Below are positions 3,184-13,315 of a stretch of DNA of 51,777 bases, in pieces. The stretch is from a virus (Duplodnaviria > Caudoviricetes). The translations under genes and the position numbers were made by a program. Position 1 is the first letter of the stretch. Each line of letters starts with the position of its first letter. The notes beneath the pieces were generated by a model, which was not told the DNA's origin, made no database searches, and worked only from the letters and a program-made list of their open reading frames with translations. Location: IMG/VR virus record IMGVR_UViG_3300020042_005180, positions 1 through 51,777 of that record, one strand, 5' to 3'.

Positions 3184-3594
3184 TTATTGATTTCTTTTCT
3201 TCTTGGCAGCAATAAACTGTTTTTCCATATTAGCGTTTGCCTTTTGAGCAGCCTCTTTCTCTGCTCTGGCAGCAGATATTGAAGTGTTATCTTTTCTGTC
3301 CATAAACGCATTAGATGCGTAGCCTGGAAGTAGATTAAATCTATTATTATCCATCATGGTCATTTTCTCATCACCTATAATATGCTTCATAGCACCTGTA
3401 TCACCCATAATGTAGTTTATTTCAGCATCTGTTTTTGTAGTATAGTCACTTACTTGTTTGGCGCTTGGCTTTACAGTCACCTCTTTAAATTTAGTGTCTG
3501 GTCGAACTATCATTGAATCTGGAATAATGGTTGTGTCCCTAGTTAAACGATCGATCGCTTTGTTTTTGAACGGGATAGAGTTGTAGTCTTTCAT
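3184..3594 (-). CDS. Hypothetical protein, paralog A (MKDYNSIPFKNKAIDRLTR N-terminus)
   Basis: 136-aa ORF; promoter box TACATTTG at 3621-3628. Confidence 0.8.
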   Translation of the reverse strand: MKDYNSIPFKNKAIDRLTRDTTIIPDSMIVRPDTKFKEVTVKPSAKQVSDYTTKTDAEINYIMGDTGAMKHIIGDEKMTMMDNNRFNLLPGYASNAFMDRKDNTSISAARAEKEAAQKANANMEKQFIAAKKKRNQ

Positions 3595-3642: not shown

Positions 3643-4023
3643 TTATTCCTCAACCTTAGATAAAAAAAAACTTAAAAAGGATGCTCCCGTTAATCCAGCT
3701 CCAATATTGTTCATGTTATTTTTTATTTTTGATTTTATTTGCGATTTTTTTGCCGCCTTTAAATCTTTATACGCACCTGTTTCTTTGTATGGTCTGCTAT
3801 CTACAATCTTGTCGTTAGACTGATCTCTCTGAGAGATTCTTGCAACCTTCGGGCTCGCTAGTTTCATAGGGTTACCCGATTGATCGTAAGTTATATTAGC
3901 AGGAGTAACCTTAACCTCTTGAATCTGAGTGCCTTTGTTCTGAGTGCCTGGTACTATGGTTGTGTTCCTAGTTAATCGATCGATTGCCTTGTTTTTGAAT
4001 GGTATAGAGTTATAGTCCTTCAT
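3643..4023 (-). CDS. Hypothetical protein, paralog B (same N-terminus)
   Basis: 126-aa ORF; promoter box TATCTTTG at 4039-4046; hydrophobic C-terminal segment. Confidence 0.8.
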   Translation of the reverse strand: MKDYNSIPFKNKAIDRLTRNTTIVPGTQNKGTQIQEVKVTPANITYDQSGNPMKLASPKVARISQRDQSNDKIVDSRPYKETGAYKDLKAAKKSQIKSKIKNNMNNIGAGLTGASFLSFFLSKVEE

Positions 4024-4069: not shown

Positions 4070-4600
4070 TGTAGGTTTTGGGCAATAGGGCCATCTGACG
4101 TTCGCCAGCCCGAAAGGAAAACGATTTCAAATTGAAGGGGGGGTCTCCATTTTGGCCTATTGAGTCGGAATTTTCTAGCTTTTCCTAGGGCTGAGCCGTG
4201 CACCTCACCTGTGCAGTTGATACCACTACCACCACCGCTACCACTACGCCTGTGCTACCTGTGATGGCCATCTATCAGCCGACCAATCGACCTGTCGTCC
4301 GACCTACCTACAAATATAGCTGTACTATAATTTGCATTATGTTAAATAGAAACGCCTTGAGACCAATCGATATGTCGACCAATCGAACGGCCAAAAGGTA
4401 TGCATCTGAGCCAATCGCACGGCTGTAATGGAGGGGTTACATCATCCGTTACAAAAATATAACAAACTTTTTTCAATTATTTTTACCTCTGTAACTCATT
4501 GTAATACAGCAACATACATCATATGTTTGTAATAATAACGTGTCAATTGAAAAAAAACTTTCAAACAAAGTGTAACATTTATAAACAAATAGCATTATAA
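4070..4600. other. Non-coding strand-switch region, candidate genome terminus or packaging region
   Basis: Divergent genes on either side; inverted repeat caatagggcca/tggcctattg around a G-run; GACCAATCGA x3 plus one variant; further imperfect inverted repeats. Confidence 0.45.
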
Positions 4601-4797
4601 GTATGTAAGGCAAACGAGCCGAGGTTGATTTTCTTAGAAAGGTACACGATGCAAAATGGTATATGTCGAGGGTATGAATGTCGGTAGGCTATGGTGATAC
4701 ATAGATAGATGTTTAAAGAGTGAGGCATAGAGAGTGATTGCAAGACAAAAACGATAGGGGAGAACGAGTGTTAACGCTCCCGCCAAAACAATACTAA

Positions 4798-4844
4798 GGT
4801 GTAGTTAGAACGACTAATCAATAGGAGCGATACCTACTGCACCA
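4798..4844 (+). ncRNA. Minimal tRNA-like structure lacking an anticodon arm
   Basis: 7-bp acceptor-like stem GGTGTAG/CTGCACC+A, hairpin TTAG-AACGA-CTAA, T-arm-like TAGG-AGCGATA-CCTA. Confidence 0.55.
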
Positions 4845-4866
4845 CTAACCAACAAAAACCTATACA

Positions 4867-4971
4867 ATGAAAACTGAGAAAGCCCCAATCGTTTTTTTAA
4901 GCGGTGTAATTCTATTAGCAGTAGTTATCATATACAATGTAATGACCATCGGTGTTCATTGCTCTATCTAA
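4867..4971 (+). CDS. Small membrane protein (34 aa)
   Basis: MKTEKAPIVFLSGVILLAVVIIYNVMTIGVHCSI, preceded by the leader motif. Confidence 0.7.
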   Translation: MKTEKAPIVFLSGVILLAVVIIYNVMTIGVHCSI

Positions 4972-4972
4972 A

Positions 4973-5024
4973 GGTTAACTGACGAGTCTTAACTAGACGA
5001 AACGGCCTACGGGCTGTCTTAACC
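4973..5024 (+). ncRNA. Type I hammerhead ribozyme 1
   Basis: GGTTAA-CTGACGA-GTCT(TAACT)AGAC-GAAA-CGGCC(TACG)GGCTG-TC-TTAACC: complete catalytic core and three stems; predicted cleavage after GUC (C5018). Confidence 0.93.
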
Positions 5025-5042
5025 AACAAATACCTAGAAATT

Positions 5043-5300
5043 ATGATGAACTACCAAAAATTAATGGCTCAAGAGCCTACAAGCTACGGCAAAATGGTAA
5101 ACGATAAAGGTCAAATAATTGAATTTTTCGAGCATCCATTCTATGGTGACGAGTCAGATGTGATAGCTGTATCTCACGACTTAAAGTTAGCTAGCTACAC
5201 CACGTTTTACGATACACATGACATGACGGCTAGCCATGGTGAGTATCAACCATCATTCAAAGATGGCAAGTTATTCATTGGTGATTACGAGGTTAACTGA
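5043..5300 (+). CDS. Hypothetical early protein flanked by two hammerheads
   Basis: 85-aa ORF with leader motif; its TGA stop lies inside the core of hammerhead 2. Confidence 0.85.
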   Translation: MMNYQKLMAQEPTSYGKMVNDKGQIIEFFEHPFYGDESDVIAVSHDLKLASYTTFYDTHDMTASHGEYQPSFKDGKLFIGDYEVN

Positions 5301-5340
5301 CGAGTCTTTATGAGACGAAATGCCGTGAGGCATCTTAACC
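5291..5340 (+). ncRNA. Type I hammerhead ribozyme 2
   Basis: GGTTAA-CTGACGA-GTCT(TTATG)AGAC-GAAA-TGCC(GTGA)GGCA-TC-TTAACC; predicted cleavage after AUC (C5334); stem III differs from copy 1 but stays paired. Confidence 0.93.
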
Positions 5341-13187: not shown

Positions 13188-13258
13188 AGTCAGGTGGCTT
13201 AATGGTAAAGCCCGACCTTTTAAGTCGGAGTATACAGGTTCGATTCCTGTCCTGACTT
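13188..13258 (+). tRNA. tRNA-Lys (anticodon UUU)
   Basis: Acceptor AGTCAGG/CCTGACT, D-arm GCTT/AAGC, anticodon arm CCGAC-CTTTTAA-GTCGG, T-arm ACAGG-TTCGATT-CCTGT; CCA not encoded. Confidence 0.9.
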
Positions 13259-13315
13259 CACTTTATAGGTACAGTTAGGGTTCTGTGGTTAGCCAACCAT
13301 TTTTGGAAAAACTCT

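Follow-up and report, generated by a model that had tools for sequence, protein, structure and literature searches.

Immediately upstream of the first early gene of a phage genome lies a real, conserved RNA structure, a 47-nt three-way junction that can be read directly from the sequence (positions 4798-4844, plus strand). It belongs neither to the tRNA family nor to the hammerhead family, and it is placed as hammerheads are. It is apparently an undescribed, minimal mimic of the tRNA elbow from Bacteroidota-type phages, and by inference it works like a tRNA-like processing signal.

The window (the whole stretch of DNA that was analysed, 51,777 bases) is the record of a single virus, with portal, helicase, exonuclease, and GroEL genes and one tRNA-Lys. 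Minus-strand genes end at 4023, and an array of small plus-strand genes runs from 4867. The size and position of these genes suggest that they are early. The host is probably one of the Bacteroidota, to judge by the hammerhead cassette, which resembles that of Cellulophaga phage phi19:3, and by homologs on a contig labelled Saprospiraceae. The features of the region are as follows.

4637-4790, plus strand: separate upstream structured leader module, present in few relatives; two two-sided changes in four sequences, weak evidence
4798-4844, plus strand: tRNA-elbow-like three-way-junction RNA, with covariation; the sole strong covariance-model match in the window, by a model that includes the window copy itself
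4798-4804, plus strand: 5' strand of P1, acceptor-like, paired with 4837-4843; two-sided changes in 6 of 7 pairs
4805-4817, plus strand: P2 hairpin, D-arm-like; A4809 co-varies with U4831, and G4812 is invariant
4822-4836, plus strand: P3 hairpin, T-arm-like, 4 bp, with the 7-nt loop AGCGAUA
4844-4848, plus strand: unpaired R-C-N-A-A tail with discriminator-like A4844 and C4845, overlapping the TAACC leader
4845-4866, plus strand: A-rich leader of gene 1; most early genes have a leader of this kind
4867-4971, plus strand: first early ORF, encoding a hydrophobic product of 34 aa that has no PHROG match; homologs in relatives L015 and L044
4973-5024, plus strand: type I hammerhead motif 1, predicted cut at 5018/5019; RF00163 E 0.006
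5043-5300, plus strand: second early ORF, 85 aa, phrog_11770, with its stop codon inside the core of hammerhead 2
5291-5340, plus strand: type I hammerhead motif 2, predicted cut at 5334/5335; a 31-nt part matches motif 1 at 90% identity
5359-5466, plus strand: third early ORF, 35 aa, of a family that follows the element in other phages

The original prediction described a 47-nt fold with a 7-bp acceptor-like stem, a short hairpin, a stem bearing the loop AGCGATA, and a discriminator A, and all of these are present where it placed them. P1 (4798-4804/4837-4843) consists of 7 bp, one of them U-G. P2 (4805-4808/4814-4817) has 4 bp and the 5-nt loop AACGA, and the 4-nt linker UCAA connects it to P3 (4822-4825/4833-4836). 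That last stem, which bears the 7-nt loop, was likened to a T-arm; it has 4 bp, not the 5 of tRNA. P1 is followed by the unpaired A4844 and C4845, by TAACC (4846-4850), and by the start codon at 4867.

Taken singly, the window copy folds modestly (z -2.3). The nearest-neighbor model gives P1 a probability of about 100% and P2 and P3 only 2-5%, favoring another interior and putting the junction 1.1 kcal/mol above the minimum. The consensus fold comes within 0.5 kcal/mol of the minimum in only 4 of 31 homologs, partly because of the alignment register. The window copy also carries a rare U-to-C change in the linker, found in 1 of 31 copies.

The comparison with homologs is what carries the structure. 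One relative, located through the second gene, has before its first gene an element of the same shape, built from different stems. A scan for the loop and tail alone returned 48 viral loci, and both stems form in 36. When 20 distinct homologs are aligned with no regard to structure, 99% of cells pair, and 12 of the 15 pairs show two-sided changes. Among 500 shuffles of this alignment, none attained the percentage of paired cells or the score for covariation; the two count measures were attained by 4 and by 21 of them. RNAalifold, unprompted, returns the same fold. In an alignment of 31 sequences, two-sided changes rise to 13 of 15 pairs, a figure that leans towards the model because the alignment was fitted to it. 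Covariation across homologous leaders had been set as a test of the original prediction, and the compensatory changes are there. The secondary structure, judged by its pattern of substitution, is under selection. G-U cells favor the plus strand (11 G-U versus 3 A-C, 7 of the G-U in one ambiguous register). A terminator-like match on the minus strand, 4846-4826, was set aside, one having been found where 1.4 would be expected.

In all, 46 distinct copies were collected, with two (L020 and L202) re-registered by hand and rows L100, L268, L322, and L354 left out as chance matches, L268 from the set of 46. Many homologs are close kin, and many copies were located by patterns that forced the loop or part of the tail. 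Several controls bear on this bias. All 20 contigs reached through a neighboring module carry the element; four are new, with the loop intact. With the tail left free, 34 of 41 loci fold, and R-C follows the arm in all 34. With the loop left free, 19 of the 22 loci printed fold, all of them with AGCRAWA, and this added just one new contig. Two second copies found without the tail constraint keep R-C-N-A-A. A metagenome scan (11 of 64 parts) gave 120 loci, and the 100 that were scored included 16 strong matches and one distant match. An exact 16-nt scan of the small hairpin was abandoned, all five of its loci being unrelated chance matches.

In host chromosomes, the contig of only one of 18 genome-scan sites folded (two loci on that one contig), and within that contig's family 1 of 151 genomes has the element, the same genome. 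The annotated phage collection that was searched gave no match to the element; only the hammerhead was matched, in Cellulophaga phage phi19:3, and no element was found in that phage's record.

The two hairpin loops change together as well. The first nucleotide of the P2 loop and T-loop position 59 (A4809 and U4831 in the window) share a mutual information of 0.71, the next best value among unpaired columns being 0.33. Over 47 rows (the 46 copies plus L204), the combination is A-U in 28, U-A in 14, G-U in 3, and U-U and A-A in one each, that is, 45 of 47 pair. On a tree that was built without the two positions, and that has few columns and is mostly unresolved, the U-A state calls for at least two changes on well-supported branches and for 5-7 in bootstrap trees. 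A pair between the D-loop and position 59 has been described for tRNA-Cys.

Other bases of the tRNA elbow are also in place. The P3 loop keeps the G53-C61, C56, and A58 of a T-loop, and position 57 is always a purine, the loop having been forced in most scans and left free in one. It is not the full T-loop of tRNA (U54 U55 C56 R57 A58), in that A and G replace U54 and U55. Eukaryotic initiator tRNA provides a known example of an A54-A58 pair (PMC7566577). The G of the P2 loop (G4812) is invariant in 31 of 31 copies. In tRNA, G19 pairs with C56 (PMC10424219), and the invariant G could pair in the same way with C56, likewise invariant. Covariation of this sort is what contact between the loops, in the manner of the D- and T-loops of tRNA, would produce, and it is likely that they dock into a tRNA-elbow-like corner, the three-dimensional geometry of which is a prediction. 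Thus far, and specifically at the elbow, the tRNA mimicry first suspected from the window is supported.

The element is nonetheless not a tRNA. Tested against RF00005 it shows no cloverleaf, ARAGORN and Rfam call only the tRNA-Lys in the window, and the consensus fold has no anticodon arm. It had been suggested that the element might be a tRNA decoy. Because there is no anticodon arm, this is unlikely for factors that read the anticodon. In tRNA, a 7-bp acceptor stem and a 5-bp T-stem make an arm of 12 bp. The stacked P3 and P1 of the element make 11 bp in 43 of 46 copies and 12 bp in the other 3, and the first pair of P1 is broken in 3 of 46. What it shares with tRNA-like processing signals is the stacking of acceptor-like and T-like stems, an unpaired discriminator, and the contact between loops that their covariation indicates.

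Position -1 is A in 41 of 46 copies. Position 73 is A in 43 and G in 3, C74 is found in every copy, and position 75 is U in 39, A in 6, and G in 1, with two more A's following. Since position 75 is never C in the 46 copies, CCA is never formed. Of 36 ordinary leaders, 8 have a C just before TAACC. The window's own tRNA-Lys(UUU), at 13188-13259, is likewise without an encoded CCA; its discriminator is followed by C-A-C (to 13261).

Close relatives have one copy of the element per record, before the first early gene. It was present in 4 of 5 records checked (phi19:3 being the one without) and in 3 of 3 in a further set. In these relatives it ends a noncoding leader pieced together from other structured modules, as in a mosaic. 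The module at 4637-4790 is common to L015, L033, L044, and L312, and other relatives have unrelated modules in its slot. Among 62 distinct upstream regions set against that of the window, only 3 have 40 nt or more in common with it, and the window is without the extra T-arm module that its closest relatives carry, so the element is independent of the modules upstream. Three distant (pro)phage contigs (G008, G183, and G184) have two copies each, the second in G184 being weak (21 bits). An upstream ORF precedes both copies in G008, both in G184, and one of the two in G183, and the copies in L086 and, more weakly, L090 also lie between genes. The gene after the L086 copy (564 onward) looks like one for an ArdC-type anti-restriction protein.

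Some further observations concern the leader and its surroundings. In 20 viral contigs (the relatives L015, L009, L011, and L013 among them), a second module lies about 15-75 nt upstream of the element. A closing stem surrounds a T-arm with the canonical loop UUCGAUU, and a stretch UAUAUAAG..GG is conserved. The module resembles a permuted mimic of the tRNA elbow and matched no Rfam family apart from one weak 17-nt tmRNA match (L054). A conserved motif, GCAAACGAGC, at 4598-4620 in the window, opens the leader of many relatives; it is preceded by a sequence like TAnnTTTG, the Bacteroidetes -7 consensus, and is a candidate early promoter. A 14-nt inverted repeat links 4747-4760, in the upstream module, to 4883-4896, in the first codons of gene 1. 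Long-range pairing of the two was set aside: L015 and L044, both with the same gene 1, retain part of it, L033 has none of it, and shuffled sequences fold as well as the region as a whole (z 0). Rejected was pairing of the T-like loop with 4775-4780, which needs an upstream module that most homologs lack. Farther away, the phage GroEL chaperonin (phrog_5725) occupies 95-1654 on the minus strand and is near the leader also in G001 and G005, and the adjacent minus-strand ORFs 3184-3594 and 3643-4023 have identical first 22 residues, a local duplication.

The original prediction held the element to be equivalent in position to the two hammerheads that follow it, and here the comparison with other phages agrees: the slots are the same, the register to the start codon is the same, and some downstream families are shared. 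The two hammerheads have type I cores that are intact by eye, and fall below Rfam gathering thresholds (E 0.006 and 4.5). The discriminator of the element is 19-24 nt from ATG in 27 of 27 close copies. The predicted hammerhead cut is 19-24 nt from ATG in 29 of 31 cases, the other two being without an ORF call. Genes of 25 families follow the element (one false match removed), and 3 of the 25 also follow a hammerhead. The largest of the swapped families is that of the window's third gene, in which the element precedes the genes of 13 distinct proteins, a hammerhead those of 14, and a plain leader those of 5. It could be that register and swapping merely reflect recombination at the shared TAACC leader. 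The original prediction noted the same TAACC leader one nucleotide after the element. It is indeed there, but TAACC stands before the majority of early genes whether or not they have an RNA device, so it is no mark of the element in particular and by itself proves nothing.

As to the hammerheads themselves, the 85-aa ORF lies between the two predicted cuts (5019-5334), its stop codon being the UGA of the second core. The piece 5019-5334 would have 5'-OH and cyclic-phosphate ends, in principle ligatable. In relatives L013, L016, and L032, long-stem hammerheads give weak RAGATH-1-hammerhead matches (E 0.2-0.9).

I propose that the element is a signal for cutting the early transcript by host RNase P, perhaps also by RNase Z. 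This is the best explanation I can offer, and I consider the case for it evenly poised. RNase P would bind the elbow and the stacked P3-P1 arm, the GGU loop of its RNA would pair with the R-C tail, and the cut would fall at G4798 or one base before it (predicted 4797/4798). The upstream RNA would be freed, and the downstream mRNA would keep a base-paired 5' end. A second cut, by RNase Z after A4844, has about an equal chance of occurring or not; it would excise a piece resembling mascRNA and leave a YUAACC 5' end like that left by a hammerhead. In this way the early transcript would be split at a gene boundary, as the neighboring hammerheads are predicted to do unaided, and the purpose may be to provide early mRNAs that are separately stable or translatable. 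A loose analogy as to purpose may be drawn with eukaryotic RNA viruses, where ribozyme cleavage upstream of ORFs aids translation (10.1101/2024.05.16.594327).

The element offers RNase P an elbow, a stacked arm, an A-rich leader unable to pair with the tail, and the R-C of RCCA. RNase P RNA was found in 23 of 25 Bacteroidia genomes, and the five of these RNAs that were inspected all have GGU in the L15 region; RNase Z scored over the cut-off in 16 of the same 25 genomes. Scored as RNase P substrates, the copies have R73 and C74 in 46 of 46, C75 in 0 of 46, and A at -1 in 41 of 46. Scored as RNase Z substrates, they always have one C after the discriminator and never CC or CCA, and the phage tRNA-Lys has the same single C.

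An ideal substrate would look different. RNase P acts as a ruler on stacked stems (PMC9433436), and the arm of 11 bp against the 12 of tRNA counts against cutting, as does the A at -1, where RNase P prefers U (PMC4919922). The broken first pair in 3 of 46 copies is a further mark against it. A C directly after the discriminator suppresses the RNase Z enzymes that have been characterised (PMC7479834), and in the element that C is invariant, an objection tempered by the phage's own CCA-less tRNA-Lys, which also has one C there. The replacement of U54 and U55, the lack in all copies of the C75 of RCCA, and the energy model's disfavor of the junction likewise count against a cut signal.

It is possible, if on the whole unlikely, that the element is not cut at all and that a mimic of the tRNA elbow acts by binding. 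It might be a knob that recruits ribosomes or enhances translation from a place some 22 nt before the start codon. It might also protect the upstream RNA as a stabilising 3' barrier, act in antitermination, or lure away a host protein that binds elbows. All of the evidence for an elbow fits such a role equally, and the 11-bp arm, the A at -1, and the lack of CCA make sense if cutting is avoided. The second T-arm module with its UUCGAUU loop, upstream in relatives, also suggests a cluster of elbow mimics. What binding leaves unexplained is the conservation of the bases that flank the open end of P1, the A at -1 and R-C-N-A-A, which keep their place at the end of the stem also where it is longer, in the three variants of 12 bp. 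And a decoy acting in trans need not abut the leader of a start codon, yet 27 of 27 close copies do.

The cut might instead be made by the RNA itself. The element would then be an undescribed self-cleaving ribozyme of about 50 nt built on an elbow-like fold and swapped with hammerheads at gene boundaries of Bacteroidota phages, a new class. Its cut would fall where P1 opens, and either the tail or the -1 base would dock on the loop-loop core. I think this improbable. The size fits, as do the many invariant single-stranded bases and the tertiary loop contact. Against it, the element matches no Rfam ribozyme, its single strands form no pseudoknot and no helix of 3 bp or more with one another or with the tail, the junction has just 4 unpaired bases, and the T-loop fold explains the conserved loop. 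Of the motifs discovered beside ribozyme-associated genes, the majority reportedly showed no self-cleavage. Resemblance to pistol, twister-sister, and HDV-like ribozymes has no support from Rfam or from the covarying topology. That the element is a chance cluster of hairpins, or an inert relic carried with the leader, would suit the weak folding of single sequences and the rare linker change in the window copy, and is hardly credible given the strong covariation of stems and of loops and the presence of the element in unrelated sequence contexts, the stem test having largely refuted it.

The element does not appear to belong to a known family. There is no hammerhead core (CUGANGA, GAAA) at 4798-4844 and no RF00163 match. 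Rfam covariance models, covering families that include twister, twister sister, pistol, hatchet, HDV-like, the RAGATH motifs, YrlA, and tmRNA, gave nothing at the element at E<=10 for the window stretch, E<=1 for 16 loci, or E<=5 for 7 distant loci. A description of the motif was not found in the literature searched; unnamed candidates in the supplements of PMC5737381 and PMC10690425 might include it, and six supplementary files of the latter gave no match.

The transcript-splitting idea is itself published, for hammerheads flanking phage genes, with ardA noted among the genes behind them (PMC3088659). What phages gain from self-cleaving ribozymes among their early genes is not settled (PMC3088659, PMC6765202), the second of these papers stating that the purpose of phage hammerheads near genes is open. 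The presence of another device, unrelated in structure, in those slots and before those genes makes the question testable. If a cut by a host enzyme can replace a cut by a ribozyme, then it is the cut that matters and not the chemistry of its ends. A transcript of 50 nt would suffice to tell a new ribozyme from an RNase P substrate of a new kind. The element is also among the smallest natural mimics of the tRNA elbow, with a tertiary pair that is visible by covariation.

Partial mimicry of tRNA centred on the elbow is seen as well in bacterial Y RNAs (YrlA) and in viral tRNA-like structures. Compared with YrlA, the element has no Ro-binding stem and no Rfam match, and compared with the viral structures it has no 3' CCA and no pseudoknot and does not stand at the 3' end of an RNA. 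The substrates of bacterial RNase P other than tRNA (pre-tmRNA, pre-4.5S RNA, mRNAs, and the C4 RNA of phages P1 and P7) provide precedent for the cutting of phage RNAs and mRNAs (PMC4919922). The element matches none of them in sequence or in Rfam and differs in being a repeated, mobile 47-nt cassette before protein genes. Similar in design are mascRNA, menRNA, and the organellar t-elements, in which, as in the element, a tRNA-like fold with acceptor-like and T-like stems lies within a longer transcript. There, cuts by RNase P and then RNase Z define the ends of neighboring RNAs, which is what is proposed for the element; those RNAs are eukaryotic or organellar and their cleavage has been shown, whereas the element is from phages and its cleavage is a prediction (PMC4919922). 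The element differs from them also in its 11-bp arm, the lack of a third (anticodon-side) hairpin, its AGCRAWA loop, and its position 5' of start codons. Similar in placement are the clustered hammerheads of phages and prophages (Perreault 2011, PMC3088659; RF00163), which fill the same genomic positions among small early genes, with the same spacing to the leader, and for which the same purpose has been proposed, the conversion of long transcripts to RNAs of gene length. The element shares neither their core nor their topology, and a cut by a host enzyme would leave a 5'-phosphate and a 3'-OH.
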